The notes under the pieces were generated by a model that saw nothing but the letters and a program-made list of their open reading frames with translations, did not search any database and was not told the origin of the DNA. 64,000 nt of DNA from NCBI GenBank assembly GCA_005883625.1, contig VBDU01000071.1, forward strand, positions 89,439 to 153,438. The letters run 5' to 3'. A program made the translations under genes and the position numbers. How positions within the stretch are numbered: the first letter of the stretch is position 1; every line of letters begins with the position of its first letter. Shown here one piece after another: positions 2,267-64,000 of this stretch. This stretch comes from Chloroflexota bacterium. Its GTDB lineage: Bacteria > Chloroflexota > Limnocylindria > P2-11E.

Positions 2267-2907
2267 GCTCTGACCCAGACCTTCTGCGCGCAGTCCGGGC
2301 GTATCGCGCGCACGGTCCCGTCGACCTCGACCCGCAGGGTCGACCCCGCGGGCTCGACGACACGGACGCGGACGCCCGGCCGCAGGCCTTGCGAGTCCAG
2401 GTACTGGAGGAAGCCCGGCTCGTGCTCGAACTGGTCCGGAATGCGCTCGATCGTCGCGCTGCCCCCGCGCTCGACCTGCTCGAGTGGCTTCGTCGGCCGC
2501 CGCGCCGCTCCGGGCATGGGGTTGCCGTGCGGGCAGGTCTGGGGATCGCCGAGGACGCGCACGAGGCGCTCCTCCATCTCCGGCGACATCGCGTGCTCGA
2601 TGCGCTCCGCCTCCTCGTGGGTCTTCCACCACTCGTAGCCGAGAAGGTCGACGAGCATCCGCTCGGCGAGGCGGTGCCGGCGGATGATGGAGTCGGCCAG
2701 CCGCTGTCCGCTCTCGGTCAGATGCACTTCTTTACGTCCATCCAACGAAACGAGGCCATCTCGCTCTAGCCGGTGGACCATCTCGGAGACCGCGGCCGCC
2801 GAAACCCCCATGAAAGCGGCCAGACGAGCGCCGATCACGCTCGTTCCCTCATCGGCGAGCGTGTAGACAGCTTGGAGGTATTCCTCGATCGCGGGCGAGC
2901 TGGCCAT
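2263..2907 (-). CDS. DtxR/IdeR-family metal-dependent transcriptional repressor with C-terminal FeoA/SH3-like domain
   Basis: HRLAERMLVDLLGY...EHAMSPE matches the IdeR/DtxR metal-site region, with a helix-turn-helix (HTH) N-terminus and an SH3-like C-terminal domain. Residues equivalent to DtxR Met10 and Cys102 are Glu here, which may point to Mn rather than Fe selectivity (inference). Confidence 0.85.
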   Translation of the reverse strand: MASSPAIEEYLQAVYTLADEGTSVIGARLAAFMGVSAAAVSEMVHRLERDGLVSLDGRKEVHLTESGQRLADSIIRRHRLAERMLVDLLGYEWWKTHEEAERIEHAMSPEMEERLVRVLGDPQTCPHGNPMPGAARRPTKPLEQVERGGSATIERIPDQFEHEPGFLQYLDSQGLRPGVRVRVVEPAGSTLRVEVDGTVRAIRPDCAQKVWVRA

Positions 2908-2941
2908 GGCCTCGATTCTTGACCCAGCGGGTCGGAATTTA

Positions 2942-2960
2942 TTAGGCTCGCTTGATGTAA
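2942..2960. promoter_or_regulatory. candidate DtxR/IdeR-type operator in the divergent regulator / FTR1 intergenic region
   Basis: TTAGGCTCGCTTGATGTAA matches the DtxR consensus TTAGGTTAGCCTAACCTAA at 13 of 19 positions. It sits in a locally AT-rich 105-nt divergent intergenic region, and a TTGACC -35-like hexamer lies at 2919-2924. Confidence 0.35.
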
Positions 2961-3012
2961 GGGGCGCCTAAGGAGCCTCTCCCCGGGTGCCGAGTATCGC
3001 ACCGGAGGTCGC

Positions 3013-3849
3013 ATGTCGGCGGCGGACGTCTCAGCGCTGGTCATCGCACTTCGCGAGGGCGTCGAGATGACGCTCATCGTCGGGATCGTGCTCGCCTACC
3101 TAACGCGGATCGGCGCGCGGCGGGCGCATCGGTTCGTGTGGGCGGGCGTCGGCGCCGCCGCGATCGTGAGCCTCGCGTTCCTCGGCGTGCTGAACGCGCT
3201 CAACGCCGAGTTCAAGGGCACGACCGAGAAGATCTACGAGGGCGCGACGTTGCTGCTGGCCGCGGCATTCCTCACCTGGATGATCCTCTGGATGCTCGAG
3301 CGGTCGCGCTACCTCAAGACGGAGCTCCAGCGTGGCGTGCAGGAGGCGCTCGCGGCCGGCGGCGCGGTCTGGGGGCTCTTCCTGCTGGCCTTCTTCACCG
3401 TGGCGCGGGAGGGCGTGGAGACGGCGCTCCTGCTGTTCGCGGCTCCCGGGGAGGGGAAGCTCTTCGGCGCCGTCGTCGGCTTCGCGATCGCCATCGGGAT
3501 CGGCGTGCTCATCTACGTCTACGGCCGGCGGCTCGACCTGGCGACGTTCTTCCGGGTCACCGGGATCATGCTCATCGTCTTCGCCGCCGGGCTCGTGACG
3601 CACGGCGTGCACGAATTCGTCGAGGCTGGGCTCGCGGGCGGGCCGACGCTGTTCGATCTCGGCCAGGTGCTTCCCGACAGCGACGGCGTCGGCGCCGTGC
3701 TGCGGACACTGATCGGATACTCCGCCGACCCGACGCTCCTCGAAGGCGCGTCCTGGGGCGGTTACTTCGTGCTGGCCTGGGCGCTGGCGAAGGCGCGCGT
3801 GTTCGCGCGGCGCTTGGTACCGACGACGGAGGTCCGTCCCGCCCAATAG
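3013..3849 (+). CDS. FTR1-family high-affinity iron permease (EfeU-like)
   Basis: 278 aa polytopic protein with two REGxE motifs (REGVEM, REGVET) diagnostic for FTR1/EfeU. Confidence 0.85.
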
Positions 3850-3857
3850 ACTGACGA

Positions 3858-3900
3858 CTCGAGGGGTTCCGCCCCGAGTCGGGGGGCTCCGCCCCCCGGC
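3858..3900 (+). terminator. tandem GC-rich stem-loops immediately after the FTR1 stop
   Basis: GGGGTTCCGCCCC and GGGGGGCTCCGCCCCCC are two direct-repeat hairpins with G4-6 / C4-6 stems and 5-nt loops. No clear U-tract follows. Confidence 0.3.
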
Positions 3901-3919
3901 CCCCAAAGGAAGGACTGAT

Positions 3920-4939
3920 TTGTTCTCTCGTCAGATCGGCATCGACCTCGGCACGGCCAACGTCATCGTCTACGTCCGAGGAAAGGGCATCGTCCTCACG
4001 GAGCCGTCGGTCGTCGCCCTCGCGCACGAGAATGGCCAGAGCCGGCCGCGCATCGTCGCCGTCGGCGAGGAGGCGCGCCTGATGCTGGGGCGCACTCCTG
4101 GCAGCATCACGGCGCTACGTCCGATGCGCGACGGCGTCATCGCCGACTACGTGATCACCGAGTACATGCTGAAGTACTTCATCGACAAGACCTGCGGACG
4201 GATCCGCATCTTCCACCCCGAGCTCATGATCTGCGTGCCGTCCGGCGTGACGAGCGTCGAGCGCCGCGCGGTGAAGGACGCGGCGGTGCGGGCGGGGGCG
4301 CGGGACGCGCACCTCATCGAGGAGCCGCTCGCCGCGGCGATCGGAGCGAACATCCCGATCTCGGGTCCGTCGGGGAACCTGATCATCGACATCGGCGGCG
4401 GCACCGCGGAGATCGCGGTCATCTCGCTCGGCGGCATCGTCGTGTCGCGCAGCGTGCGCGCGGCGGGCAACAAGCTCGACGAGGCGATCGCGAGCTTCGT
4501 GCGCAAGCGCTACAACCTCATGATCGGCGAGCGCACGGCCGAGGACGTGAAGATCCAGATCGGCTCCGCGCTGCCGATGGACCCCGAGCTCACGATGGAG
4601 GTGCGCGGCCGGGATCTCATCGCCGGCCTCCCGCGCACGATCACGATCGGCAGCAACGAGATCACCGAGGCCATGGACCCCGTCCTCCAGCAGATCATCG
4701 CCTCGGTGAAGTCCGTGCTCGAGGAGACGCCGCCCGAGCTCGCATCGGACGTCATCGACAAAGGCATGGTCCTCTCCGGCGGAGGCGCGCTCCTGCGGAA
4801 CATGGACAAGCTCCTGACCCAGGTCACCGGGGTCGCCTGCTACGTGGCCGAGAACCCGCTCTACTGCGTCGCGAAAGGCACGGGTCTCGCGCTCGAGCAC
4901 CTCGACTTCTTCCGCAGAAGCCTCGTGGCGGTCCATTAG
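3920..4939 (+). CDS. mreB: rod-shape-determining protein MreB
   Basis: 339 aa with [13 protein letters not shown]...[15 protein letters not shown], the actin-like MreB signatures. RBS AAAGGAAGG lies upstream. Confidence 0.9.
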
Positions 4940-4942
4940 ACC

Positions 4943-4988
4943 GGGCGGGGAGCGAGGGCTCAGGGGAAGGGGCCGAGGGGCAGGGGAC
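4943..4988 (+). other. G-tract cluster (potential G-quadruplex) in the mreB / wecB intergenic region
   Basis: GGGCGGGGAGCGAGGGCTCAGGGGAAGGGGCCGAGGGGCAGGGGA contains seven G3-4 runs. Confidence 0.3.
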
Positions 4989-5022
4989 CCTCTCAGCGAA
5001 GCGTGCAGCGAGTGGAGCGAGC

Positions 5023-5835
5023 GTGCCGACCGAGCAGGGACGTGCCTCGAAACGAGCGGACGGCCCCACGAGCGAAGCGGCCGAAGGCAGCGGAGTGAGT
5101 AGGGATCGGAGAGTCGACGTGCTCGGCGTCGGCTTCGATCGGGTCGGCCTCCGCGGCGCCCTCGAGAGGGTCCTCGAGCGGCACGCGGCAGGGGAGCGGA
5201 CGTTCATCATCACCGCGAACCCGGAGTTCGTCATGCTCGCGCGCCACGATCGCGAGCTCGCGGGCGTCGCGCGCGAGGCCCATCTCGTCGTGGCGGACGG
5301 GGCCGGCATCCTCGTCGCCTCGCGTCTTCTCGGCGATCCGCTGCCCGCGCGGGTCCCTGGCCGTTTCCTCGTGCAGGCGATCCTCCCGCGTCTCGCCGCG
5401 CTCGGTGCACCGGTGTTCCTCCTCGGCGCCGGGCCCGGCGTCGCCGATCGCGCGGCCGAGACGCTCCGCCGTCGCGTCCCCGGCATCCGCATCGCGGGGA
5501 CGGACACGGGGTCGCCGGACGACGATGCGACTGTCGCGCGCGTGGCGGCAGCGCGTCCGCGCGTGCTCCTCGTCGCCTACGGCATGCCGCGCCAGGAGCG
5601 CTGGCTCGCGCGGAACCTTCCGCGGCTCGAGTCGGTCAAGGTCGCGATCGGCGTGGGCGGCGTGTTCGACCAGCTCGCCGGCCGCGTGCGCCTGCCTCCG
5701 CGCCTCGTGCACGCGCTCGGGTTCGAGTGGCTGTGGCGCCTCGCGTTCGAGCCGCGCCGCTGGCGCCGCCAGCGCGTTCTCCCACTCTTCGTCGCCCACG
5801 TCCTCCTCGAACGCGCGCGTCACGGCGCGCGATGA
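5023..5835 (+). CDS. WecB/TagA/CpsF-family glycosyltransferase (GT26; UDP-ManNAc / polyprenyl-PP-GlcNAc transferase type)
   Basis: VLGVGFDRV...FIITANPEFVM...VAYGMPRQERW...IGVGGVFD is the WecB/TagA family pattern. Start could be ATG 5023 or GTG near 5098. ATGA overlap with the next gene. Confidence 0.75.
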   Translation: MPTEQGRASKRADGPTSEAAEGSGVSRDRRVDVLGVGFDRVGLRGALERVLERHAAGERTFIITANPEFVMLARHDRELAGVAREAHLVVADGAGILVASRLLGDPLPARVPGRFLVQAILPRLAALGAPVFLLGAGPGVADRAAETLRRRVPGIRIAGTDTGSPDDDATVARVAAARPRVLLVAYGMPRQERWLARNLPRLESVKVAIGVGGVFDQLAGRVRLPPRLVHALGFEWLWRLAFEPRRWRRQRVLPLFVAHVLLERARHGAR

Positions 5836-6926
5836 AGCTCGCGCTCGCGCACGAGTACTTCAGCGCCCGCGGCGGCGCCGAGCGGGTCGTCGACGTGCTC
5901 CATGGGATGTGGCCCGAGGCGCCCGTCTACACGTTCTTCCACGACCGCCGCCGCTACGGCCGCCTCGACGGCTGGGATCTGCGGACGAGCTACCTGCAGC
6001 CCGTCGCGCTCGGTGGCGGCCTGCACCGGCTGCTGCTCCCGTTGTACCCGAACGCCGCTCGCTCGCTGCGCGTCGGAGCGGAGTTCGACGTGGCGCTCGT
6101 CTCGACGAGCGCGTTCATCAAGGGCCTCGCGCTCTCCGACCGCACCGTCGAGGTCGCGTACTGTCACTCGCCGACGCGGTACCTCTGGGACTGGGCGGAG
6201 CGCTATCTCGAGGAGGAGGTGCCGGCCCCGCTGCAGCCGGTCGTGCGCGAATTACAGGCCCGGCTGCGAGAGACCGATCTCGCGTTCGCGTCGCGCGTTG
6301 ACCGCTGGATCGCGAACTCGCGCGCGGTCGCGGAGCGCATCGCGCGGTACTACGGTCGCGAGAGCGAGATCGTGCATCCCGCCGTCGACGTCGACGCGTT
6401 CGCCGCGAGCGGCCAGCGCGGCGATTTCTGGCTCTTCGTCGGCCGGCTGTCGGCGTACAAACGGGCCGACCTCGCGGTGAGCGCGTTCAACGAGCTGGGC
6501 CTGCGCCTGCTCGTGGTCGGTGGGGGCCGCGAGCGCGACCGCCTCGAGCGCCTGGCCCACGAGAACGTGGTGTTCGCCGGCCGCGCCGACGACGCGACAC
6601 TCCGCGACCTCCTCGCGTCGGCGCGCGGCCTCGTCTTCCCGGCCGAGGACGACTTCGGGCTGGTGTGCGTCGAGGCGCTCGCCTCCGGTGCGCCCGTCGT
6701 CGCGCTCGCCGCGGGCGGCGCGCCGGACATCGTCCGCGACGGCGAGGACGGCGCGCTGTTCGCGCATCCCGAGGCCGGCGAGGTGGCGGACGCCGTCCTC
6801 CGTGTCGAACGCGGATCGTTCGATCCGCGCGCGTTGCGCGAGTCCGCGCGCAGGTTCGATGTGTCACGATTCCGCGACCGCGTGCGCGCGATCGTCGATG
6901 ACGCTTATCGCAAAGGAAGACCTTGA
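5832..6926 (+). CDS. GT4 (GT-B fold) glycosyltransferase
   Basis: EDDFGLVCVEALASGAPVVA is the GT1/GT4 EX7E-region motif. ATG overlaps the upstream stop (ATGA). Confidence 0.8.
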   Translation: MKLALAHEYFSARGGAERVVDVLHGMWPEAPVYTFFHDRRRYGRLDGWDLRTSYLQPVALGGGLHRLLLPLYPNAARSLRVGAEFDVALVSTSAFIKGLALSDRTVEVAYCHSPTRYLWDWAERYLEEEVPAPLQPVVRELQARLRETDLAFASRVDRWIANSRAVAERIARYYGRESEIVHPAVDVDAFAASGQRGDFWLFVGRLSAYKRADLAVSAFNELGLRLLVVGGGRERDRLERLAHENVVFAGRADDATLRDLLASARGLVFPAEDDFGLVCVEALASGAPVVALAAGGAPDIVRDGEDGALFAHPEAGEVADAVLRVERGSFDPRALRESARRFDVSRFRDRVRAIVDDAYRKGRP

Positions 6927-14271: not shown

Positions 14272-14380
14272 TTCATATACTCCGCGCACGAAGGAGCCGA
14301 CCCGCCTACCACGAGACAGCGACGATCTCGACACGCAGTTCGACGCCATCGTCGACACGCTGCGTCGTGACGTCCGCCGT

Positions 14381-15283
14381 TTGCGCCAGCAGGTCGAACG
14401 CTTCGGGAAGGCCTACCACAAGCAGGCGGAGGCGCTGACCCGCCGTGCCGACACCGAGCTCGACGAGACGACCGCGCGTGCGAACCGCCGCCTCAAGCAG
14501 CTCCGGCTGGTCGTCCAGCACATCGAATCGACCGCGGCCTACCTCCTCGGCACCGGGATCGGTCCGGCGGAGCAGGTCGACGACGAGCAGATCGAGATGG
14601 CGCAGCGCGTCCTCGAGAGCCTCGAGGCCGAGCGCGAGCGGCTGTATCGCGACGTCCACGACGGGCCCGCGCAGGTCCTCGCGAACGCGATCTTCGAGGT
14701 CGAGTACCTCGAGCGCGTCGCCGAGCGGGCGTCGTCGGAGGTGCGGCAGACGCTCCGCTCCGAGCTGTCCGGCCTCAAGGGGCAGTTCCGCTCGTCGCTC
14801 GACTCGGTGCGCGCGATGATCTACGACCTTCGTCCCCCCGAGCTCAGCGAGCTCCCGCTCGCGGAGGCGATGCGCAACTACGGGAGCGAGTGGGAATCCC
14901 GCTGCGGTATCAAGGTCGCGAGCACGCTCGACACGGCCGAGACCGGCCTCACGCCTACGGCGGAGCTCGCGATATATCGCGTCATGCAGGAGGCCCTGCA
15001 GAACGTCCACAAGCACGCACGCGCGACGAGCGTCGGCGTCAACTGGTCGCGCTCGAACCGGACCTGGGTGCTCCACGTCACCGACGACGGCGCCGGCTTC
15101 GACATCGTGAAGGCGGCGCGACGTCAGAAGTCGGTGGGGCTCCTCTCCATGCGCGAGCGCGCCGAGCTCATCGGCGGCACGCTGCAGATCCAGTCGACGC
15201 CCGGGAAGGGGACCGCGGTGACGCTGCTCCTTCCGACCGAACAGACGATGGAACGACTCCGGAAGGTGGAGGCCGATACGTGA
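14381..15283 (+). CDS. cytoplasmic HisKA_3 sensor histidine kinase (DegS-like, no TM); start uncertain
   Basis: H-box RDVHDGPAQ, N-box QEALQNVHKHA, G1 DDGAGFD and G2 GLLSMRERAELIGG are all present. Coiled-coil N-terminus. An AAGGAG site at 14291 has no canonical start within 80 nt; the first in-frame canonical start is TTG 14381. Confidence 0.6.
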   Translation: MRQQVERFGKAYHKQAEALTRRADTELDETTARANRRLKQLRLVVQHIESTAAYLLGTGIGPAEQVDDEQIEMAQRVLESLEAERERLYRDVHDGPAQVLANAIFEVEYLERVAERASSEVRQTLRSELSGLKGQFRSSLDSVRAMIYDLRPPELSELPLAEAMRNYGSEWESRCGIKVASTLDTAETGLTPTAELAIYRVMQEALQNVHKHARATSVGVNWSRSNRTWVLHVTDDGAGFDIVKAARRQKSVGLLSMRERAELIGGTLQIQSTPGKGTAVTLLLPTEQTMERLRKVEADT

Positions 15284-15984
15284 GCGAAAAGAGCGAGCGG
15301 GCGATCCGGATCCTGATCGCCGACGCCAGTCGGATCACGACCATGGGGATCCGTCAGGTGCTGGAGAAGGAACAGGACTTCGAGATCGTCGGTATCGCCG
15401 GCGACGGCGAGGAGGCCGTGGCGAAGACGAACGAGCTCGAGCCGGACGTCCTCGTCATCGAGGTCGACCTGCCCCGGCTGTCGGGCATCAAAGCGACCCA
15501 GCGCGTGCGGCGCGAGCTGCCCGCCGTCGGCGTCATCATCCTCACCGCCCAGGACCAGGAGCAGATCCTGTTCGAGGCCATCCGCGCGGGCGCGGCAGCG
15601 TATCTTCACAAGGACTGCGAGCCGACCGAGCTCGTCGACGCCATCCGCAAAGTGCGCAGCGGGCAGTTCATCATCAACGAGAAGATCTTCAGCCGGCCCG
15701 CCGTCGCGTCGAAGGTGCTCGCCGAGTTCCGCGAGCTCTCGGTGTACGGGCCGGGCTCGACGCACGTCTTCGCGCCGCTCTCCCCGCGCGAGGTGCAGAT
15801 CCTGGACAACATCGCCCAGGGCATGACGAACAAGGAGGTGGCGTACGCACTGGCCATCTCCGAGCAGACGGTGAAGAATCACATGTCGAGCATCCTGCGG
15901 AAGCTGTCGGTGAACGACCGCACGCAGGCCGTCGTCTACGCCATCCGGCAAGGGTGGATCAAGGGTCCGGAGATAGGCAATTGA
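15280..15984 (+). CDS. NarL/FixJ-family response regulator (REC + LuxR HTH)
   Basis: GTGA overlap start. Receiver motifs LIADAS..., VIEVDLP and T/K residues, with C-terminal LuxR HTH EVQILDNIAQGMTNKEVAYALAISEQTVKNHM. Confidence 0.85.
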   Translation: MSEKSERAIRILIADASRITTMGIRQVLEKEQDFEIVGIAGDGEEAVAKTNELEPDVLVIEVDLPRLSGIKATQRVRRELPAVGVIILTAQDQEQILFEAIRAGAAAYLHKDCEPTELVDAIRKVRSGQFIINEKIFSRPAVASKVLAEFRELSVYGPGSTHVFAPLSPREVQILDNIAQGMTNKEVAYALAISEQTVKNHMSSILRKLSVNDRTQAVVYAIRQGWIKGPEIGN

Positions 15985-17015
15985 GCACGGACGCGCCGAG
16001 CGTCATCGCCGAAGTCACGTCCGAACGGCAGAAGATGACCGCGGAGATACGCGAGCTCGACCTGCTCGTCGAATCGACACAGACCGAGGTGAGCCGCCTC
16101 AAGGCCCGCGAGGACCAGACGAAGGCGAAGGTCGACGAGGTGCGCACCAGCGCCGCGGACGCGAAGCGCGAGGAGATCTTCGGCGCGTCCGACGAGTACA
16201 CGGTCGCTCTCGGCCGGCGCATGACGATGGAGGGACAGCTCGCGACGCTCCAGGGGAAGCGCAAGCTCCTCGATCGGAGCGCGCAGCTCCTCGCCATGGC
16301 CGCACGGCAGCTGGAGGAATATTCGGTGCCGCCCCTCCCGGCGGATGCGAGCCCCGTGATCGACGAGGGCAAGCTCCTGCAGGCGGTCGTCGACACGCAG
16401 GAGGCCGAGCGCAAGCGCATCGCCAGACAGGTCCACGACGGACCGGCGCAGGCCATGGCGAACGTCGTCCTGCAGTCGGAGATCAGCGAGCGTCTCTTCG
16501 AGGTCGACCAGCAGCGCTCTCGTACCGAGCTCGCCTCGCTCCGTCAGATGGTGAACAAGACCTTGCAGGAGCTGCGCGGCTTCATCTTCGAGCTGCGGCC
16601 GATGATCCTCGACGATCTCGGGCTCGTGCCGACGCTCCGCCGGTACGTCCAGACGCTCATCGACAAGCATGGCGTGCGCATCGACTTCTCGAGCACCGGG
16701 CGCGACCGCCGTCTCCCGTCCGACGACGAGGTCGCGATCTTCCGGCTCATCCAGGACTCGCTCGTCGAGCGCATCGAGAAGGCGCAGGCGAAGGACCTCG
16801 TTCTCGGGATGGCCTGGAAGGAGGACACCCTCGACATCCTCCTGCAGAGCGACGGCAAGGAGCTCCCACCCGATGGCGAGCTGCAGTCGGGGCTGCGCCG
16901 GAGCGAGCGGCTCGAGCTCCTGCGCGGCGAGTCCACGCACGAGACGCGCGCTGACGGTACCGTCCTGCTGACCGTGAAGGTCCCCGTCCGCTCCGCCCCG
17001 CAAGTCGTCACGTGA
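15981..17015 (+). CDS. second cytoplasmic HisKA_3 kinase-like protein with degenerate ATP-binding domain
   Basis: TTGA overlap start. The H-box ARQVHDGPAQ is retained, but the N-box Asn/His are lost (SLVERIEKAQA), the G1 box is lost (SDGKELPPDG) and the G2 box is lost. Confidence 0.7.
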   Translation: MSTDAPSVIAEVTSERQKMTAEIRELDLLVESTQTEVSRLKAREDQTKAKVDEVRTSAADAKREEIFGASDEYTVALGRRMTMEGQLATLQGKRKLLDRSAQLLAMAARQLEEYSVPPLPADASPVIDEGKLLQAVVDTQEAERKRIARQVHDGPAQAMANVVLQSEISERLFEVDQQRSRTELASLRQMVNKTLQELRGFIFELRPMILDDLGLVPTLRRYVQTLIDKHGVRIDFSSTGRDRRLPSDDEVAIFRLIQDSLVERIEKAQAKDLVLGMAWKEDTLDILLQSDGKELPPDGELQSGLRRSERLELLRGESTHETRADGTVLLTVKVPVRSAPQVVT

Positions 17016-54751: not shown

Positions 54752-55375
54752 ATGACAAGTCGATTTCCCTTCCGCGCCGCGCGCGGCCTCGCCCACGGCA
54801 TGGTCGGCGTCGTCGCGATCGTCCTCATCGTCGCGGGAGCCCGGATCGCGACCGCTTCCGTGTCGGCGATCAGCCCGACCGCGCAGGGCGCGGTCAGCGG
54901 TGGCGGCACGGTGACCAATCCATGCGGCGATGCGAGCTTCGGGCTGAACAGCGTGCGCCCGAACACCTTCCCCGGCGGGCAAGCGCTCGGACGGATCAAC
55001 TACGACCGGCTCGGGAGCTGCGCGAACGCGCACGTCAACGTCCCGGTGGTCTTGAAGTCGGTGACGGTCAGCTCCACGCCCACGCCGAACGGCACCGGCG
55101 GCGACGCGGCCATCATCGGCGACTGCACGACGGGGGACACGAATACCGCCTGTCCGACGGGGTCGCCGCCCGTCACGCACGTGCTCGTGTTCACGCGGGA
55201 CGTCGCCGATAGCGGAGCGGGCCAGGACCAATTCCAGATCCATTTCCTGAACTGCGTCGGCACGCCCACGCCGCCGACGTCGTTCGGCGCGACGCCCGAC
55301 AACTGCACCGAGCCGCTGCCGTTCGAGGGTGGGCTTCTGACCACCGGCAACATCCAGGTGCGCCTGCCACCGTGA
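54752..55375 (+). CDS. secreted Cys-containing Gly/Thr-rich hypothetical protein
   Basis: Signal peptide, 8 Cys, no family recognised. Confidence 0.5.
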   Translation: MTSRFPFRAARGLAHGMVGVVAIVLIVAGARIATASVSAISPTAQGAVSGGGTVTNPCGDASFGLNSVRPNTFPGGQALGRINYDRLGSCANAHVNVPVVLKSVTVSSTPTPNGTGGDAAIIGDCTTGDTNTACPTGSPPVTHVLVFTRDVADSGAGQDQFQIHFLNCVGTPTPPTSFGATPDNCTEPLPFEGGLLTTGNIQVRLPP

Positions 55376-55387
55376 CAAGGGAGTGAC

Positions 55388-55918
55388 GTGAGCCTGCTGA
55401 ACCAAAAGGCCCGGTCGCTCGGCGCGGCGCTCCTCGCCGTCGCCCTTCTCGTCGGCGCCCTGCCGACGACCGGTATCACGGCGGCCGCGCCGTCGCCGGC
55501 GGTCGGCACGACGCTGCTGGCGGGCACCACGCTGGTGACTGGCGCCGGCTCGGGCGTCTTCCCTGGCGGCGCCGTCTGGGGCGGCGTTGCGCTCAGCGGC
55601 GGGTCGTTCGGACAGGGTGTGGCGGTCTTCGGTGACGGCACCGCGAGGGGAGACTTCCAGATGATCCTCGCGGGGACGAACGTGCTCGGCGTCGCGACGA
55701 AGATCCTCGTGGTCGGCTGGGTGACGGCCGGGGCGGCGAACCCCGATGGGAGCGCGAGCATCAGTGGGACGTGCCGGGTGGACATGCAGGACGGCACGGT
55801 GCCGTCGACCGGTGTCCCCTTCACCGCGGCGATCACGACCGGCGGCCTCCAGCTGACCGTCGGGGCGACGGCCCTCCCGACCCTGGTGAAAAGCGCGGGC
55901 TGGATCTACCTCGAGTAG
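55388..55918 (+). CDS. secreted Gly/Thr/Ala-rich hypothetical protein
   Basis: Signal peptide LLAVALLVGALP, low-complexity G/T/A-rich mature region. Confidence 0.5.
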   Translation: MSLLNQKARSLGAALLAVALLVGALPTTGITAAAPSPAVGTTLLAGTTLVTGAGSGVFPGGAVWGGVALSGGSFGQGVAVFGDGTARGDFQMILAGTNVLGVATKILVVGWVTAGAANPDGSASISGTCRVDMQDGTVPSTGVPFTAAITTGGLQLTVGATALPTLVKSAGWIYLE

Positions 55919-55934: not shown

Positions 55935-58900
55935 TCACGGTGCGGTGGCGACGGACGAGCGTCGGCGTGACTTCCACACGCGGATCCCGAGCGGCAGCGT
56001 CGGCGCGAGGAGTAGCAGGCCCGCGACGCCTTCGGGGACGATCGTCGCGGTCATAAAGCGCGAGGGGAACGTCGAGGTGCCGGCGGAGAAGAACGAGTTG
56101 TTGCAGTTGTTTCCGGGGCTCGTGAAGGTGACGCTGAACTGAAGGCGGTCGTTCGTGACGAACGTCGCCGCCAGGCTCGCGAACGTGACCGCGATCGGCG
56201 TGACAGGGGTGTTCGGGGCGAGGCTGGTGGAGCCGGTCCCCAGCGACGTGGTCGTCGCGGTCGCGGCGTGATACCAGAGGAGCGCGAAGCTGACGTTGCA
56301 CGTCTTCGAGGTGCTGTTGTTCCACATGTAGACGCTGGTGCTCGTCGTGCCCGCTCCGAGGGCCATCCCGGTGGTGAACGTGTCGGAGCAGAAGGTGTCC
56401 TTGACGCCGGCCCCGCCGGGGAAGCTGAAGCTGCCCGCCGCCGTCGGCGCCGTCTGGTACATGTCGTACGCCCCGGCGCATGCGAACGTCGTCTTCGCAT
56501 CGGAGAGGTAGAAGGTGCTCGACGTGCCCGCGGACGCGTCGGCCGGAACCGCGTTCGCGAGGAACACGACGTTCACCGAGAGTCCGAGCGCGAACGCAAG
56601 GAGCGCCGCGGTGAGGCGCCGGCGGAGGCGTAGCCAGCCGAAGACGAGCAGCGCCAGCGGTACGGCGGTCCCGAGCACGGCGGGGACCGCGTAGTCGGTC
56701 GGCTCGCGTGCGCCCGACGCGCTCGCTGCCTGCACCGAGAGCGCGCCGACGGTGATGATGCCGGCCGCGAGGAGCACGAGGACCGACATGACGGCGATCC
56801 GGACGCCGAGCGAGCGCCTCGCGTGCGGCCGCCGGCGCGTCGGCAGCTCCCACGGCAGGAGGCGCGCCAACCGGAAGGGATCGAGCGCTTCCGTGACGCG
56901 CCCGGACTTCGGCGTCCTGACCCAGCCGCCCTCGTCTCGTTCGAAGAGCGCCTTGAGCGAGGCGTAGGCCTGGAAGGGCACGAGCAGCCAGGACAGGCCG
57001 ACGAACGACAGGATCCCCGCGGCGTCGCGGCGCAGCGAGCCCTCGAGCAGTCATGAGCGGCAGGGCCAGGGCGTTGGACACGATGAGCGACCAGCCGAAG
57101 ACTTCTCCCCACATGGGCAGCTTCTGGTGGAACACGAAGGTGCCGAGCAGCCAGGTGACCGTCCCGAAGCTAAAGAGCACCGACTGCAGGTAGTAGGGGG
57201 CGTAAAAGCAGAACTCGAGCTTCTCCTTGAAGCTCAGATTGGGCGAGCTGATCACCTGGAAGAAGTACTTCTTCACGTTGTAGGTGTGGCCCTCGGCCCA
57301 GCGCATGCGCTGCTTGATGAGCCGCCGGACCGTGCTCACGCACTCCGCGGGGGCCTGGATGTAGGGGGTGTAGAGCACCTTGTACCCCGCCAGGTAGAGG
57401 CGAATGGTCAGCTCCCAGTCCTCGGTGATGGACGTGCTCCAGCCGAGCTTGCGCAAGACGTCGGCGCGGATCATGTAGACCGAGCCCGAGATCATCTTCA
57501 TGGCGCCGAAGAGCTCCTGCCCGGTGCGCTCGAGCACGTAGCTGCCGGCGAACTCGGCACGCACGCCCTTGGTGATCCAGTTCTCGCTGGCGTTGAGCAT
57601 GTGCCACTGGTAGCCCTGCACTGCCGCCAGGCGGTCGCCGTTCTGCGGCACCCCGCTCGCGCTCGACGCGTGGCGCTCGGCGCCCTTTGGCCTTGCCGCC
57701 AGGCGGCCGAAGTAGTCGAGGAAATGCCAGATCGCGTCCGCCGGCGGCACGAAGTCCGCGTCGAAGATGAGCACGTACTCGGTCCGTGGGTTCATCCGCC
57801 CGAGCGCTTCCTGCAGCGCGCCGCCCTTGAAGCCCTTGCGGCTCTCGCGGTGGAGGACGCGGACGCGCGGGTGGTCATCCCAGCGCTTCAGGATCTCGAC
57901 CGTCTCGTCGGTCGAGTCGTCGGCGACGATGACCTCGTAGTTCTCGTAGTCGAACGAGGTGCAGGCCTCCAACAGCCTGTCGACGACGCGGGCCTCGTTG
58001 TAGAGCGCCACCTGCACGGAGATGAATGGCTGGCGTTCGGCCGGCAGGCGCAGCTCGCCGAGGCGCTGCCAGGGATCGGTCGCCATGACCGAGCCCCCCT
58101 CGTCGAGCTTGTCGCCACGCAGGGTGCGGTATCCCGAGCGGTGCTGGCTGCCTGAGTGCGCGCCCTTCGCTTCGCCGCTCGCCCTCAGTCCATACCCCGC
58201 CTCATCGCCGTCGGCATTCCCAGCGCGGTCCGCGCGCTGGCCCCGGTTCTTGCGCGGGAGGAGCCGCACCGAGTCGCCGAAGAGCGCGAGCAACAGCACG
58301 CTCGCGCTCGTGACGTAGTACTTCAGCGCGTACACGAAAAACAGGAAGCCGCAGACGAGCGCGAGCAGCGAGAGGCCAAAGCGCGGTTGGAGCGCGTCGC
58401 GGAACAGGAACGCGAAGCCGCCGAGCCAGACGATCCCGATGACCGCTATGAGCACGTTGGTCTCGAGGCGGCTCGGGATGTCTCCCAGCGCGACAACGGG
58501 CGCCGGCGCGCCCGAGCCCCAGGCGCGCGCAAGGGTCTCGTCCACCTCATCGGCAGTCGCGGTCACCACACTGAGCTTGAGTCGCGTCAGGCGCTGCGCC
58601 TCGGCGAGCGCCGCGAGGTCGAGCGGATCGGCCATCGCGAGGACGCCGTCACCGCCGGTCGCCGCTGTCACGACCACGCGCATGCCGCGTGCGATGTCCA
58701 CGGGCAGCAAGCGCGCGGCGTCGCGCTCGACCGGATCGACCAGGCGCGGGGAAGAGATGCGCGACTCGGTCGGGTCGATCGGCGCGGCGATCTCGGGGTA
58801 CGGGGCCAGCGACACGAGCGGCGTGCCGCTCGCGCGAGCGAGGACGTCGGCGAGCTCGGCCTGTGCGACGAGACCGAGGCGGGTCAGTGTGGCGCCGAGC

Positions 58901-59388
58901 GATTCGCCGGCGCCCGCTCTCGCCAGAGCGTCGTCGACCTGCGCCTCGGTCAGCGCGCGGCTGCCGAGCAGGAGCTCGATGACGCGGCGCCAGTCGGGCC
59001 GAAGTCCGCTCAGCCGCCGGCGAGTGACCAGGGCCGCACCGGTCGCATGGACCGCGCGCCGCAGCTCGTCAGCGGGCGCGTCCTTTTGCACGTAGGTGGT
59101 GGCGCCAGCCGCGAGCGCGAGATCGCGCGAACCGGGGTCGACGGTGAGGAACACGATCCCGATCTCGGGGAGCTCGCTCGCAAGGATGCGCGCGACGTCG
59201 AGGCCCGACAGCCCGGGCATGATGTTGTCGAGGAGGATGAGATCTGGTCGGAGCTTCCGGGCCAGTGCGAGCGCGCTCGGGCCATCGGTCGCTTCGCCGA
59301 CAACGCTGATCGCCGGGTCCGCATCGAGGATCTTGCGGACGCCTTCGCGGACCAGACGCTGATCGTCTGCGATGAGGACGCGCGTCAC
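55935..59388 (-). CDS. REC + MshEN-like (GspE-N-type) + GT2 processive synthase (BcsA/cellulose-synthase-like; D,D,D,QxxRW); apparent frameshift near 57020-57055 joining two reading frames (possible pseudogene or sequencing error)
   Basis: GTG 59388 with AAGGAG 11 nt upstream. Receiver LIADDQ...LILLDNIMPG...T...K. Tandem MshEN-like helices (LLGSRALTEAQVDDALARAG / LTRLGLVAQAELADVLARAS). GT2 motifs DDSTDET, FDADF and QRMRWAEG. A gating-loop-like WVRTPK and further TMs continue only in the other frame (track ORF 55935..56981). The original frame carries on as Arg-rich junk to 55906. Confidence 0.6.
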
Positions 59389-59553
59389 TGCCCGGCTCGC
59401 TCCTTGTATGTCGCCCGCTTGGCGGGCGTGCGAGCAGTGTTCGTTCTGTGCGCTTCCGGCAGGTCCCGCCATCGGGGGATTCCCGGGCCGAATTCCCACC
59501 GTCCTGACAGGGCGGTGCGCTATTGAGACGCGCCCGCTACCGGGCCCCGGCCG

Positions 59554-60534
59554 CTACGGCCGCATGCGCTCCCGCGGGACGACGACGCGCACCGTCGTAC
59601 CGGCGCCTGGCCGGCTCTGGACCTTGATGACGCCGCCCAGGAACGCGATCCGCTCGCGCATCACGAGGAGTCCGAATGCGCCCGCTCCTGGGCGCACCTC
59701 GCCCCACTGCTCGATCGCGAAGCCGCGGCCGTCATCCGCGACGACGATCTCGAGCATGTCCGGCGTCGTGAGGAGCGCGAGCCGGACCTCGTGCGCGGCG
59801 GCGTGGCGCCGCACGTTGCGGAGCGCCTCGAGCGCGACCGCGTAGAGCGAGGACTCCGCGTCGGGCACGAGCGGGCCCGGGTCGTCCATCGCCTCTTCCA
59901 GCGCCCACCCCGCCGTCGCCGCGATCTCGCGCGCCGCGACGGACAGCGCCGCGACGAGCCCGAGGTCATCGAGCGTCGCCGGGCGCACGGCGCCAAGGAT
60001 GTCGCGCGTCGCGCGGATCGCGCGACGCAGGAGCGCCACCGCCTGTGCGATCTGCTCGTTCTCGACCCCCGCGCTTTGCAGCTGGCCGTGCGCCGAGACG
60101 AGGATCGGCGCGAGCTCGTCGTGGAGGTCGCGCGCGAGCGTGCGTCGCAGCTCCTCCTCCTGTGTGAGGAGCTGACCGGCGAACCGCTTGAGGTCGCCGA
60201 AGAGCGTGAGGCGATCGATAGAGAATGCCGCCTGCTCCGCGAGGATGCGCAGGAAGGAGACGGCCTCGTCGCCCGGATGACCGGACTGGCGGTTCACGTT
60301 GAGCACGCCGATCGTCTTCGCCCCGACGAGGAGGGGAAGACAGATCGCGAACTCCACGTCCTTGGTGTACGGCGTGCGCAGCTCCGTGGCGGCGGGGCCC
60401 TCCAGGATGATCGGGGCCTTCCGCTCGAGCGCCTGCCACGAGATCGACGACCCCACCGGGACGCGCGTTCCCTCGAGGCGGTCGCCGCGGCCGGTGCGGA
60501 CCACGAGCGCGTCGCCGGGTGGATCGACGGTCAT
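59554..60534 (-). CDS. GAF-domain HisKA_3 sensor histidine kinase
   Basis: Short GAF (...ICLPLLVGAKTIGVLNV...), H-box ARDLHDELAP, N-box EALRNVRRHA and G1 DDGRGF. Confidence 0.8.
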   Translation of the reverse strand: MTVDPPGDALVVRTGRGDRLEGTRVPVGSSISWQALERKAPIILEGPAATELRTPYTKDVEFAICLPLLVGAKTIGVLNVNRQSGHPGDEAVSFLRILAEQAAFSIDRLTLFGDLKRFAGQLLTQEEELRRTLARDLHDELAPILVSAHGQLQSAGVENEQIAQAVALLRRAIRATRDILGAVRPATLDDLGLVAALSVAAREIAATAGWALEEAMDDPGPLVPDAESSLYAVALEALRNVRRHAAAHEVRLALLTTPDMLEIVVADDGRGFAIEQWGEVRPGAGAFGLLVMRERIAFLGGVIKVQSRPGAGTTVRVVVPRERMRP

Positions 60535-60676
60535 GAGCGAGGCGGAATCGAAGCCGACCGCGTCGTGCGCCGCGTCCAGGACGAGCTGGTGGAGCTCCGT
60601 CGCGTCCTTTGCGTAGCCGATCCGCAGGGTCGCCCGCTCGAGCGCGCGAAGGAGCGCGCCGCCCGAGGTCGCTAGC

Positions 60677-61324
60677 TCAGGCGGTGGCGGATTCGACGAG
60701 GCCGTTGCGGACCGCGTAGATCGCGGCCTGCGTGCGATCGGAGACGTTGAGCTTCTCGAGGATCGCGGCGACGTGGCTCTTCACCGTCTCCGGCGAGAGG
60801 ACGAGCCGCTCTGCGATCTCACGGTTCGAGAGACCCTCCGCGACGAGGGCGAGGATCTCGCGCTCGCGCTTGGTGAGGTTCTTCGCCGCCGGCGGCACGG
60901 GCCCCGTCGGCTTCATCTCGCTGAGCATGCCCTTGAGCATCTGCGATTCGATGAACGCGCCCCCGGAGGCGACCTGACGGATCGCATCCACGAGCTCGTC
61001 CTTCGACACGTCCTTCAAGAGATATCCGGCGGCGCCGGCGCGGACCGCTTCCTTGAGATACGCGGGGTTGTCGTGCATCGTGACCATGATCACGGCGGTG
61101 CGCGGCCGCTCCTCTTTTATCCGTTTCGTGGCCTCGAGCCCGTCCATGTCGGGCATCCGAACGTCCATGAGCACGACGTCGGGAAGCTCTTTGCGCGCGA
61201 TCTCGAGGGCCTCGCGCCCGGTGCGCGCTTCGCCCACGAGCGTGAGGTCGTCGTTCTTGGCGAGCATCGCGGCGATGCCCTGCCGCACGAGCTCGTGGTC
61301 GTCGACGAGCATGACCCGTGTCAT
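60677..61324 (-). CDS. NarL/FixJ-family response regulator
   Basis: MLVDDHELV...VVLMDVRMPDMDG, then a LuxR HTH. Confidence 0.9.
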   Translation of the reverse strand: MTRVMLVDDHELVRQGIAAMLAKNDDLTLVGEARTGREALEIARKELPDVVLMDVRMPDMDGLEATKRIKEERPRTAVIMVTMHDNPAYLKEAVRAGAAGYLLKDVSKDELVDAIRQVASGGAFIESQMLKGMLSEMKPTGPVPPAAKNLTKREREILALVAEGLSNREIAERLVLSPETVKSHVAAILEKLNVSDRTQAAIYAVRNGLVESATA

Positions 61325-61394
61325 CGCCTGCGGATTCTACGGTCGGATGTCGGGGGACTCCGTTCCCGGCTGCTGTCCCTCGCGAGATCGCGCA

Positions 61395-61919
61395 TCAATA
61401 CCGCGCGATATAGAGGATGTAGAGCAGCGCGATGACCACGATCGCGGCGGCTACGCGCACGGCGAGTCCGCCCGGCGCGCGCACGCCGCCGGTGACTTCG
61501 GGGACGTGCACCACGCCATCGATCGCCTTGGCGAGGTCGCCGCCGCTCGCGTCCTTGCGGACCCACCCCCGCATGTCGTCGAGCCGAGCGCTGAGCGCCC
61601 GCGCGGAAGCCTCGTCACCGGAGAGGACGAGGCTCGGCACGCCGAGGACGAAGCTCGAGCCGTCGGTGAGCAGCGTTCCATCGACGAGCGCCACGTCCGC
61701 GGACCAGGCGGGGCGGAGGGCGACGATCTCGCCGGGGCGCGAGAGCCGGCGCACGTCGTAGCGGCCCTCGAGGGCGAGCAGTGTCTCGAGACCGCTCGCG
61801 ATCGCGGGATGGGCGCTCACGAGGGCGACCTTTACCCTGCCGACCGCTCGATTATCCGCCTTGTCGCCGCTCGAGACCCATGTAGGGCTCGCCGACAGGC
61901 CCCTCCTACCAACCTCCAT
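61395..61919 (-). CDS. pseudo-receiver (NarL-type REC lacking the acidic pocket) with C-terminal TM anchor
   Basis: VKVALVSAHPAIASGLETLL (DD replaced by SA)...DVALVDGTL...WVRKD, and a C-terminal VAAAIVVIALLYILYIA. This is the C-terminal part of the 740-aa track ORF, whose upstream part is Arg/Asp-rich junk. Confidence 0.45.
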   Translation of the reverse strand: MEVGRRGLSASPTWVSSGDKADNRAVGRVKVALVSAHPAIASGLETLLALEGRYDVRRLSRPGEIVALRPAWSADVALVDGTLLTDGSSFVLGVPSLVLSGDEASARALSARLDDMRGWVRKDASGGDLAKAIDGVVHVPEVTGGVRAPGGLAVRVAAAIVVIALLYILYIARY

Positions 61920-61964
61920 CTGGAGACCGATGCCCCGTAACCCCCCAGAAACGACTGTTACCGC

Positions 61965-64000
61965 GTGCCGACGCGCATCTTGATCGCCGACGACCACCTC
62001 GCGGTCCGCGAGGGCCTGCGTTCGCTCCTCGAGCCGGAATCGGACTTCGAGATCATCGGCGAGGCCGCGGACGGGAACGAGGCCGCCCAGAAGGCTCTCG
62101 ACCTCAAGCCGGACCTCATCGTCCTCGACAACTCGATGCCCGGTATGACCGGCCTCGAGGTCGCACGGATCCTTCGCGCGAACCTTCCTCAGACCAAGAT
62201 CGTCTTCCTCACGCTCGATCCAGGCATCCGCGATCTCGCGCTCGCGACCGGCGCGGTCGCGCACGTCGCGAAGGACGTCCCGCCGCAGGAGATCATGCGC
62301 GTGGTCCGCGCGGCTGCGGGCCTGCGACCGCAGCGTGCGACGAGCGGCAACGGTCACGCCGTCCCGTCCCAGACGAAGCTCGCCGAGCTCGTCGTCGCGG
62401 AGCACCTCCTCACGACCCAGCAGGTGCAGGACGTCGAGGGCGCCCGCGAGAAGCGACAGACGCTCGCGAACGCGCTGCTTCGCTCCGGCCTCGTTCCCGA
62501 GGAGAAGCTCGCCGACGTCTTCGCCCGCGCGAGCGGCCAGCGGCTCATGTCCCTCCGTCCCGAAGCAGCGTCGAGCGAGGCACGCGGGCGCACTCACGCG
62601 AAGGACCCGATCGACCCGACGGTCGCGCGGCAGCTCCCGCGTCGCTTCTGCGAGCAACGCGCGATCGTGCTCGTCGAGCTGAAGCGCGCCCAGGCGACCC
62701 TCGCGATGGCGGATCCATTCGATGAGACCACGGCGAACGAGGTCCGCGACATGCTCGGCGGCGTCGAGCTCAGCGTCGTCACCGCGACGGTGAGCGACGT
62801 CCGCGACGCGATCCAGCGCTCGCAGGCCCCCGCCGTCGTGCCGCTGGTGGCGGTCGCACCGACGATGCACATCCGTCGCCACCGCGCCTTCCCGCTCGTC
62901 GCGGCGATCGCCGCCGCGTTCCTTCTCTTCGCGACGGGGATCGGCGTCGTCCTCACGCAGGGGACCGCGACCGACGCCCGCGCGAATCTCACGATCTTCC
63001 AGGGCGCGGTCGAGATCCGTCACGGCGCGGGGCCGTTCGTCGCGGCGTCCACGAACGATCTCCTCCGCCAGGGTGACACGGTCCGGACGTCGGCGAACGC
63101 GAACGCCGCGCTCGCGTTCTTCGAGAGCTCGATCGTCGTCCTTGAGCCGGGTACGGAGGTCGAGGTCGTCTCGCTGCGTCAGATCGCGAGCGGTCGCGAC
63201 ATCGACGTGGTCATGCGCCAGACGAGCGGCATGACCTGGCACGTGGTCTCGCATCCGCTCGGCGCGGGCGCGCGCTACGCCGTCCTCACGCCGTCGTCGA
63301 CGAGCACGGTCCAGGGCACTGCCTTCCAGGTCGCTGTCGATGCGCGCGGCATGACCACGGTCACGACGACGGACGGGGTCGTGCACACGCAGGGCGCGGA
63401 CGGCGCGAGCGCAGCGCCGGTCGCCGTGAACGCGCAGCAGACGACGACGGTCACCGGTGCCGGACCCGCCACGCCTCAAATGGCGAAGATGCGGACGGTG
63501 ACGTTCGTCCTCGATGCCGGCCGCGACGCGGTCGTCGTGAACGCGGCCGGTGAGTCCGCCGGCGTGAGGGATAACGAGATCGTCCGCTACATCCCGGGAT
63601 CGACCGTTGCCCGGCAAGGCGGCAAGGTCGTCGTGAACCTCCCAGGCAACGAGGACGGTGCCTTCGCGACGATCGTCGCGCCGGCAGGCAGCGCGACGCA
63701 GGTCCAGATCGCGGCCGACCTCAAGTCGCCGGACGGTGGTCCCGTGAGCGCGGTCACCGATCAGCGTTCGATCGATAACGGAGTCGCGCGCACCGGTGTC
63801 AGCGTGATCGGGAACACCGTGGTCCTCACCAGTGCCACGACGATCACCGCGCAGCCCCTCGCCGTGAATCCTCCGCCGGCGCCGACACCGTTCAACCCGC
63901 TCGGCGTGGTACAGAGCTCGCCCCTCGCGATCGGTCCTGCGGGTCCAGCCGGTGTCGCGGGCGTGCCTGGCGCGCCGGGTCCACAGGGTCCGCCTGGTCC
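61965..64000 (+). CDS. REC + MshEN-like + TM + FecR-like + beta-rich region + collagen-like Gly-X-Y repeat protein; 3' end beyond the window
   Basis: GTG 61965. N-terminal 260 aa paralogous to the GT2 fusion (ILIADDHLAVREGL...LIVLDNSMPGMTGLE...; LSVVTATVSDVRDAIQRS). TM AFPLVAAIAAAFLLFATGIGVVL. FecR-like TIFQGAVEIRHGAGPF...LRQGDTVRTSANANAALAFFESSIVVLEPGTEV. The sequence ends GPAGPAGVAGVPGAPGPQGPPG. Confidence 0.7.
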   Translation, partial: MPTRILIADDHLAVREGLRSLLEPESDFEIIGEAADGNEAAQKALDLKPDLIVLDNSMPGMTGLEVARILRANLPQTKIVFLTLDPGIRDLALATGAVAHVAKDVPPQEIMRVVRAAAGLRPQRATSGNGHAVPSQTKLAELVVAEHLLTTQQVQDVEGAREKRQTLANALLRSGLVPEEKLADVFARASGQRLMSLRPEAASSEARGRTHAKDPIDPTVARQLPRRFCEQRAIVLVELKRAQATLAMADPFDETTANEVRDMLGGVELSVVTATVSDVRDAIQRSQAPAVVPLVAVAPTMHIRRHRAFPLVAAIAAAFLLFATGIGVVLTQGTATDARANLTIFQGAVEIRHGAGPFVAASTNDLLRQGDTVRTSANANAALAFFESSIVVLEPGTEVEVVSLRQIASGRDIDVVMRQTSGMTWHVVSHPLGAGARYAVLTPSSTSTVQGTAFQVAVDARGMTTVTTTDGVVHTQGADGASAAPVAVNAQQTTTVTGAGPATPQMAKMRTVTFVLDAGRDAVVVNAAGESAGVRDNEIVRYIPGSTVARQGGKVVVNLPGNEDGAFATIVAPAGSATQVQIAADLKSPDGGPVSAVTDQRSIDNGVARTGVSVIGNTVVLTSATTITAQPLAVNPPPAPTPFNPLGVVQSSPLAIGPAGPAGVAGVPGAPGPQGPPG

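Follow-up and report, generated by a model that had tools for sequence, protein, structure and literature searches.

Organisation of the locus

We examined a window of 64,000 nucleotides from a Chloroflexota bacterium (GCA_005883625.1, contig VBDU01000071.1, positions 89,439 to 153,438 of the forward strand), in which the region studied, from 55935 to 64000 (70% G+C), encodes two membrane proteins that begin with the same kind of signalling module, a receiver (REC) domain followed by an MshEN-like domain. One is a family 2 glycosyltransferase (GT2) synthase (55935-59388, minus strand), and the other is a surface protein with a FecR-like domain and a collagen-like tail (61965-64000, plus strand). 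The minus strand carries, from upstream to downstream, a small gene (61919-61395), a NarL-type regulator (61324-60677), a histidine kinase (approximately 60660-59554) and the GT2 gene, which starts with GTG at 59388, 165 nt after the kinase stop. The FecR/collagen gene is divergent from this set, starts with GTG at 61965 and continues past the end of the window. The nearest database proteins are labelled "Chloroflexi bacterium" or "Candidatus Dormibacteraeota" and come from soil metagenome-assembled genomes (MAGs). Homologous loci and proteins are given below as L- and P-numbers, with L001 being contig MNEP01000042.1 and L085 contig VBFA01000099.1. The most likely interpretation of the locus is that of phosphorylation control of envelope proteins, in which the MshEN-like domain is a structural or protein-binding adaptor.

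Paralogous receiver and MshEN-like modules

We found that the N-terminal 316 residues of the GT2 protein and the first 322 residues of the FecR/collagen protein are paralogous, with 43% identity over 307 residues (BLASTP, E = 1e-60). Both modules match Pfam Response_reg (E = 7.6e-21 in the GT2 protein and 9e-22 in the FecR protein) and Pfam MshEN (E = 1.1e-10 and 41.8 bits, and E = 5.3e-11 and 42.8 bits, respectively, with a cut-off of 23.1 bits). In the GT2 protein, the receiver occupies residues 4-113 (59050-59379, minus strand) and the MshEN-like domain lies at 58522-58998 (minus strand), while in the FecR protein they are found at 61977-62306 and approximately 62364-62831 of the plus strand. 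Both fused receivers are NarL-type, and the residues of CheY-like phosphorylatable receivers (DD, D, T and K) are present in both of them as well as in the NarL regulator. In alignment A1, D8, D9, D54 and K102 are invariant and T82 is nearly so, and of 71 proteins of the family, 66 retain the DD pair and all have the acceptor Asp. A sequence-only reading of the same DNA had proposed the paralogy, the NarL-type receivers with intact phospho-acceptor residues and the MshEN-like second domain, and all three hold.

Upon modelling the GT2-type module with AlphaFold2 (AF2), we obtained a predicted four-helix bundle followed by an alpha/beta subdomain (predicted local distance difference test, pLDDT, of 85). 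The helices span residues 131-142, 148-156, 164-171 and 176-187, corresponding to an MshEN_N-like bundle at residues 131-187, and strands and helices follow at 238-290, in the MshEN_C part that Pfam places at residues 219-289. The matches of a fold search with this model were dominated by the receiver domain. The homology to MshEN is seen in phmmer matches to MshE (5HTL), PilB and XpsE, and there is weak similarity to the MshEN region of NfrB (NCBIfam). The best-kept block of the module, LAMADPLD, lies in the MshEN_C subdomain, and four polar residues, Q150, R170, R185 and S187, are near-invariant (alignment A3).

Degeneration of the cyclic di-GMP motif

The same reading had assigned both modules a role as receptors of cyclic di-GMP (c-di-GMP), and it had named beforehand a domain without the conserved binding motif as the outcome that would speak against it, which is what alignment to the 24-residue motif gave. 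The motif of Vibrio cholerae MshEN (VcMshEN) consists of two tandem 24-residue copies of RLGxx(L/V/I)(L/V/I)xxG(L/V/I)(L/V/I)xxxxLxxxLxxQ, with the relaxed form [RKPN]hGxxhhxx[GAS]hhxxxxhxxxhxx[QNKRYWST] (PMC5013675). Compared with V. cholerae MshE (PDB 5HTL), the GT2 copy carries G11I, G18R, R38S and Q61A and reads R-V-I at R9-L10-G11, and the FecR copy carries G11A, G18H, R38T, G40A and Q61A. We tabulated these positions in 84 family members, with 28 GT2-type and 31 FecR-type proteins counted at G11. Position G11 is I, V or L in 24 of the 28 GT2-type members, with Gly in none, and Ala in 24 of the 31 FecR-type members; Arg at R38 and Gln at Q61 occur in no member. The core hydrophobic positions L14, L39, L54 and L58 are retained across the family, and an Arg equivalent to R9 is present in 26 of the 28 GT2-type proteins, with K, A or T in the FecR type. 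Neither window protein matched the relaxed motif, nor did any of the approximately 95 proteins of the family, among them relatives with 30-33% identity; the VcMshE control matched it twice, at residues 9 and 38. The NCBIfam model of the 53-residue c-di-GMP motif (NF053729, cut-off 38 bits) scored 29.2 bits for the GT2 copy and 15.8 bits for the FecR copy, compared with 86.1 bits for the V. cholerae control. Because the motif is degenerate family-wide, we predict that the domain belongs to the MshEN fold family and falls outside its c-di-GMP-binding subset. A recent loss of the motif, with distant REC-MshEN-GT2 relatives still keeping it, was ruled out, since those relatives have no motif.

These residues bear on the model of the sequence-only reading, in which each module integrates two inputs, phosphorylation and c-di-GMP. 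True MshEN homology and the fact that GT2-MshEN enzymes are known c-di-GMP effectors (PMC8669469) are in its favour, as are a GAF-HD_5 gene lying two genes downstream of the synthase in L002 and the single relaxed motif kept by the REC-GAF proteins P0134-P0153 of related soil lineages. Against it stand the substitutions themselves, as c-di-GMP binding by VcMshEN is abolished by G11I/L and G40I and XpsE, whose substitutions form a comparable set, fails to bind the nucleotide (PMC5013675), and G491L was the strongest of the MshEN mutations tested in NfrB, sharply lowering the plating of phage N4 (PMC8669469). Together with the motif scan and the NF053729 scores, this makes the two-input model improbable. 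A remodelled pocket binding another small ligand, for example another cyclic (di)nucleotide, would be compatible with the retained four-helix bundle, the near-invariant polar residues and the R9-position Arg of the GT2 type. The motif positions, however, differ between the two paralog families at R9 and at G11, a misfit with one shared pocket, and the best-conserved block lies in MshEN_C, the protein-interaction subdomain of type II secretion system (T2SS) ATPases. We regard such a ligand as very improbable.

Two observations from outside the window concern nucleotide signalling. Of the REC-MshEN-GT2 loci, L002 is the most distant, and its GAF-HD_5 (HD-GYP-type) gene (14352-16739) is the sole sign of cyclic-dinucleotide metabolism that we saw close by in any locus. 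A regular-expression scan of the window for GGDEF, EAL, HD-GYP and PilZ gave no credible match, which speaks for the window and not for the organism. In addition, a separate, unrelated REC-GAF_2 family of about 635 residues (P0056, P0134-P0153) from related soil Chloroflexota-like MAGs has one preserved relaxed MshEN_N motif (PIGEILVELGFARREDIERAAARQ) directly after the receiver, a possible candidate site for c-di-GMP or a related ligand.

The GT2 synthase and its frameshift

The GT2 gene is disrupted as assembled, its intact homologs having 1050-1560 residues. Frame A (57054-59388) encodes the receiver, the MshEN-like domain, two transmembrane (TM) helices and the GT2 catalytic domain, and frame B (55935-57050) encodes an RTPK motif, three TM helices, an extracellular domain and a tail of the form VPEG-TM-RRR. 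The protein matches Pfam Glyco_tranf_2_3 and Glyco_trans_2_3, and a TM and motif scan identified DDS490, DAD543, TED655 and QRMRW693, with TM helices on both sides of the catalytic domain, so that the motifs of a processive GT2 (D, DxD, TED, Q(R)xxRW and flanking TM helices) are all present. The NCBIfam models of PgaC, CelA and NodC gave weak matches, far under their equivalog cut-offs. The break is a 14-nt deletion at 57051-57054 (minus strand), located by DNA alignment to L001, L005, L007 and the 98.8%-identical L085 and by protein comparison. Homologs read ATGA[ACCTCGCCGGGGTG]CTGCTC at this site, encoding PLMNLAGVLLEGSL; in the window, the frame is lost after NALALPLM and the remainder, LLEGSLRRDAAGILSF...RTPKSG, is read in another frame. 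The identification of a GT2 synthase thus stands on its Pfam and motif evidence, and what fails is its description as one intact open reading frame (ORF). The frameshift falls in the TM region after QxxRW, which in BcsA-type enzymes is part of the translocation channel, and the window gene has no intact frame through the C-terminal channel helices.

L085 retains the 14 nt missing from the window. It carries a frameshifting deletion of its own, of about 60 nt at approximately 5793-5806 (corresponding to window 57747-57792), which is flanked by a 14-nt repeat and removes the DAD motif.

The module was said to sit where BcsA has its PilZ domain, and this is apt as a functional analogy and not as a position, because PilZ lies at the C-terminus of BcsA and the module here at the N-terminus, ahead of the first TM helices. 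The window protein shares with BcsA a processive-type GT2 signature, flanking TM helices and a fused cytoplasmic regulatory domain, but it has no PilZ and its module is N-terminal and of the phosphorylation type; the sequence similarity is weak (E = 3e-6 over about 100 residues). Across the GT2 family the N-terminal regions are modular: some proteins have REC-MshEN, others a REC joined to a different domain or a methyltransferase fusion, and others no such region.

All full-length GT2 homologs (P0008, P0010, P0012, P0025, P0027, P0033-36, P0039, P0041, P0130, P0131 and P0133, and L007 at 1786-6474) share a C-terminal tail of the form [TV]xT[IV]VPE[GA], a hydrophobic helix (GLxLLAPxxPL), W and RRRR, found in the window at 55935-56040 (minus strand). 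The tail is constant although the preceding extracellular domain ranges from about 150 to about 550 residues. It is PEP-CTERM-like in shape, and such a signal would be odd on a polytopic synthase. As a catalogued sorting signal it was rejected, with PEP_CTERM reaching 14.8 bits on one homolog (cut-off 16) and giving no match on the window tail, and we treat the likeness as a resemblance only.

A comparison with L001 showed that the window gene is a mosaic. The L001 GT2 gene (2171-5608, P0012) is 96% identical to the window in the C-terminal third and the downstream genes and 48% identical in the REC-MshEN module, and a methyltransferase gene lies upstream of it where the window has the kinase, which points to a recombination breakpoint within the GT2 gene. 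The P0012 receiver reads AEGH at the ADDH position. The flank 3' of the window GT2 gene is syntenic with L001 and contains two small convergent genes followed by acylphosphatase and PolX genes. The small pair (54752-55918, plus strand; 207 and 176 residues) is secreted in appearance, converges on the GT2 3' end and shows about 90% conservation with L001; it was not detected beside GT2 in other loci, and an NCBIfam search of the two proteins returned zero matches.

The FecR-like and collagen-like protein

The divergent gene encodes a protein in which the REC and MshEN-like domains are followed by a single TM helix (62895-62951), a FecR-like domain (63075-63383), a beta-rich part and a Gly-X-Y region from approximately 63933, which is cut by the window end at 64000. 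The Pfam FecR match is weak in the window protein (20.4 bits, under the 24-bit cut-off) and homologs carry FecR; NCBIfam assigns a Lsa33/LipL45-type FecR domain, and Scl1/Scl2-like collagen repeats in homolog P0082. The Gly-X-Y run at the window end is GPAGPAGVAGVPGAPGPQGPPG, and P0072 (94% identical) and other homologs extend Gly-X-Y over more than 200 residues with Pfam Collagen PF01391. Through this continuation in the homologs we count the window protein among the bacterial collagen-like proteins. The earlier description of a single-pass membrane protein with a FecR-like domain and a collagen-like tail is therefore upheld.

The protein does not belong to the FecR anti-sigma class, as its N-terminus is REC-MshEN-like and contains no anti-sigma domain. 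No ECF sigma gene was found among the called genes of L003 and L004 or in the window between 59554 and 61965. Additionally, the protein has no LPXTG anchor. The extracytoplasmic FecR-like domain after a single TM helix is shared with the Leptospira adhesins LipL45 and Lsa33 and with FecR-type TM proteins, and the Gly-X-Y tail with the streptococcal Scl collagen-like adhesins; in contrast to the FecR-type proteins, the cytoplasmic part here is REC-MshEN-like with no N-terminal anti-sigma domain, and unlike the Scl adhesins the window protein is not LPXTG-anchored. We also observe REC-FecR-collagen homologs that lack MshEN (P0117-P0126). Because these exist, as do GT2 proteins with other N-terminal modules, the domain architectures indicate an accessory place for the MshEN-like domain, with the receiver as the input that stays constant.

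The kinase, the NarL regulator and the pseudo-receiver

The kinase gene (59554-60660, minus strand) encodes GAF, HisKA_3 and HATPase_c domains (Pfam) and is of the MctS/UhpB/NarX type (NCBIfam). Inspection of its translation by eye, the protein being outside the hydropathy scan, showed no obvious TM helix. The NarL/FixJ-type regulator (60677-61324, minus strand) combines REC with a GerE helix-turn-helix domain (Pfam). Both genes had been named correctly in the sequence-only reading. The reading frame already encodes the conserved N-terminus of the GAF domain (LLRALERATLRIGYAKDATELHQLVLDAAHDAVGFDSASL) ahead of ATG 60534, the first canonical start of the kinase; from this ATG back to the stop at 60783, the frame contains no other ATG, GTG or TTG. 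The kinase ortholog of L010 has GTG where the window reads CTG (60627). A non-canonical start of the kinase is possible.

The small protein at 61395-61919 (minus strand; probable start ATG 61919) has no Pfam match. Aligned end to end with a REC profile by hhalign, it reached a probability of 82% (E = 1e-5), and its AF2 model is a (beta-alpha)5 fold with a C-terminal TM helix (pLDDT 78). When this protein was searched against the PDB with Foldseek, receiver domains made up nearly all of the top 50 matches. In alignment A2, which comprises 24 homologs, A/S-H stands in place of the acidic DD pair, and the Asp at the acceptor position, a Ser (in Ser-Gly) and the Lys are invariant. On the alignment and the predicted fold, the protein is a tail-anchored pseudo-receiver, having lost the acidic pair and kept D, S and K. 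It had been described as a TM-anchored receiver-like protein lacking the Asp pocket; the fold, the anchor and the loss of the acidic pair agree with that description, but the acceptor Asp, the Ser and the Lys are kept.

Between the divergent genes we identified a TGT-N11-ACA palindrome (61879-61899, element 61881-61897) by alignment of five loci. In all five (the window, L003, L004, L008 and L010) it lies within a conserved block of about 70 nt upstream of the FecR-type gene, and the 64-kb window contains only four TGT-N11-ACA sites. If ATG 61919 is the start, the first part of the pseudo-receiver ORF extends over the palindrome in the window. The palindrome is a candidate operator of the highly conserved NarL regulator.

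Synteny and distribution

We next consider the arrangement of these genes across loci. Four loci, L003, L004, L008 and L010, have the FecR-collagen gene divergently oriented to the pseudo-receiver and NarL genes, with the kinase next in order in L010, and no GT2 gene is nearby. The NarL regulator is 84-89% identical across these loci, compared with approximately 44-65% for the neighbouring genes. The REC-MshEN-GT2 genes of L002 and L009 have their own GAF-HisKA_3 kinase and NarL genes directly upstream, and these NarL proteins are 46-48% identical to that of the window. The GT2 and FecR units are joined only in the window and in the near-identical L085-L088, at least four assemblies that repeat the same-strand order pseudo-receiver, NarL, kinase and GT2. 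By gene order, there are two separable units: the FecR-collagen, pseudo-receiver and NarL genes, with the kinase in some loci, are the conserved functional unit, and the GT2 gene is found together with it in this strain cluster only.

This pattern raises the alternative that two independent systems lie side by side, the kinase, NarL regulator and pseudo-receiver serving the FecR-collagen protein only and the GT2 gene being a neighbour brought in by rearrangement, with its receiver served by another kinase or useless. The four FecR loci without GT2, the separate kinase and NarL genes of L002 and L009, the methyltransferase preceding the L001 GT2, the mosaic structure of the window gene and its separate frameshifts in the window and in L085 are all consistent with it. 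The short gaps within the same-strand set, including the 165 nt between kinase and GT2, and the repetition of this order in the near-identical assemblies argue against it, as does the GT2 receiver, which is of the same NarL class with an intact active site and belongs to the closest paralog of the FecR-protein module. Taken together, we consider two independent systems unlikely.

A HMMER scan of 1.84 billion representative proteins returned only 30 clusters at E <= 1e-30. All matches to the full-length module in which the output region was present and checked were REC-MshEN-GT2 or REC-MshEN-FecR, and several other matches were short REC-MshEN fragments. The next-best genomic matches were melainabacterial genes; these were ruled out as members of the same family, being REC-MshEN-T2SSE ATPases.

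Comparison with known systems

Several of the fusions are known in part. Supplementary Table 4 of PMC5013675 already lists MshEN-Glyco_trans_2_3, Glyco_trans_2_3-MshEN (NfrB), REC-MshEN-T2SSE and REC-MshEN_N (Bd2402). The REC-MshEN-GT2 and REC-MshEN-FecR-collagen architectures and the tail-anchored pseudo-receiver partner are absent from that catalogue and were not found in literature searches, and the literature on receiver-fused glycosyltransferases and on MshEN, FecR and collagen combinations gave no description of these architectures. The claim that the system is undescribed thus applies to the triple fusion and the FecR-collagen version, and not to MshEN-GT2 or REC-MshEN fusions as such. 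In this locus, signalling and envelope domains that are already known have been recombined in a rare and lineage-specific way.

NfrB, the c-di-GMP-activated GT2 exopolysaccharide synthase of Escherichia coli, likewise combines a membrane GT2 (DxD, TED, QxxRW) with a cytoplasmic MshEN-family domain, and the catalogued MshEN-Glyco_trans_2_3 proteins, such as Rsph17029_0522 of Rhodobacter sphaeroides, also fuse GT2 to such a domain. In contrast to both, a receiver precedes the MshEN-like domain here and the motif is degenerate; moreover, the MshEN domain of NfrB is C-terminal and binds c-di-GMP, the order being reversed relative to the window protein. The window GT2 protein is not of the NfrB type, scoring 18 bits with model NF008411 (cut-off 1170). 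The order of a receiver followed by an MshEN-family domain is found in Bd2402 of Bdellovibrio (REC-MshEN_N) and Gmet_3473 of Geobacter (REC-MshEN-T2SSE), but in those proteins the motif is preserved (Bd2402 has a Kd of 0.4 uM for c-di-GMP) or the output is a secretion ATPase, whereas the window proteins have lost the motif and have a GT2 synthase and a FecR/collagen protein as outputs. A parallel in motif state is the N-terminal domain of XpsE/GspE, which has the same fold and serves protein interaction without binding c-di-GMP; XpsE has G11V, R38G, G40L and Q61V where the proteins here have G11I/A, R38S/T, G40A and Q61A. XpsE is part of a secretion ATPase, and in the window proteins the domain joins a receiver to a membrane part.

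Interpretation

The locus encodes a soluble GAF-HisKA_3 kinase beside three intact NarL-type receivers, one in the NarL factor and two fused to membrane proteins. NarL-class receivers usually have HisKA_3 kinases as their partners. On balance, we favour a lineage-restricted two-component system acting directly on envelope proteins in addition to transcription. In this system the kinase would use its GAF domain to sense a ligand in the cytoplasm and would phosphorylate NarL, giving a transcriptional output, possibly through TGT-N11-ACA at 61881-61897, and it would also phosphorylate the receivers fused to the GT2 and FecR/collagen proteins. The MshEN-like domain, placed after the receiver and ahead of the first TM helix, may relay the phosphorylation state to the membrane part or recruit a partner, acting as a rigid adaptor or protein-interaction module like the N1 domain of GspE, which binds GspL. 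This relay would switch polymer synthesis or surface-fibre behaviour, and the membrane-anchored pseudo-receiver could serve as a docking site that keeps the soluble kinase at the membrane, or could compete for or titrate that kinase.

Several points weigh against this interpretation. Phosphotransfer and an adaptor function of the MshEN-like domain are both proposed from sequence, the pairing of the kinase with the fused receivers is suggested by gene adjacency, and the docking role of the pseudo-receiver is conjectural. The loss of the motif predicts, and does not prove, that neither c-di-GMP nor other nucleotides are bound, and motif II of the window GT2 copy retains L39, G40, G47, L54 and L58. 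The GT2 and FecR units are unlinked in other lineages. Furthermore, the window GT2 gene carries a frameshift and that of L085 a different disruption; either the gene is decaying in the population or the two short-read assemblies are both wrong at these places, and because of the frameshift the window synthase may be inactive. The sequence-only reading had proposed one envelope module under phosphorylation and second-messenger control: its two-component context is retained, its c-di-GMP half is not, and its idea of a single integrated module loses strength because synteny splits the units and the synthase gene is frameshifted.

A fuller version of the favoured two-component reading, which we put forward tentatively as a possibility, is that the MshEN fold has been repurposed here from a c-di-GMP sensor into a phospho-signal transducer, that the cassette sets a polysaccharide synthase and a collagen-like fibre protein under direct post-translational two-component control, and that the tail-anchored pseudo-receiver recruits or buffers the kinase.

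To our knowledge, almost nothing is known of envelope regulation in this lineage, an abundant uncultured soil group. Because the cassette is so rare, the impact would lie mainly in mechanism and annotation rather than in general biology. For annotation, the locus would be a caution against taking every PF05157 match for a c-di-GMP receptor. If the reading is correct, the family would provide a clear example of an MshEN domain whose fold was retained when nucleotide binding was lost, and of receivers that act, beyond transcription, directly on a processive polysaccharide synthase and a surface collagen-like protein.

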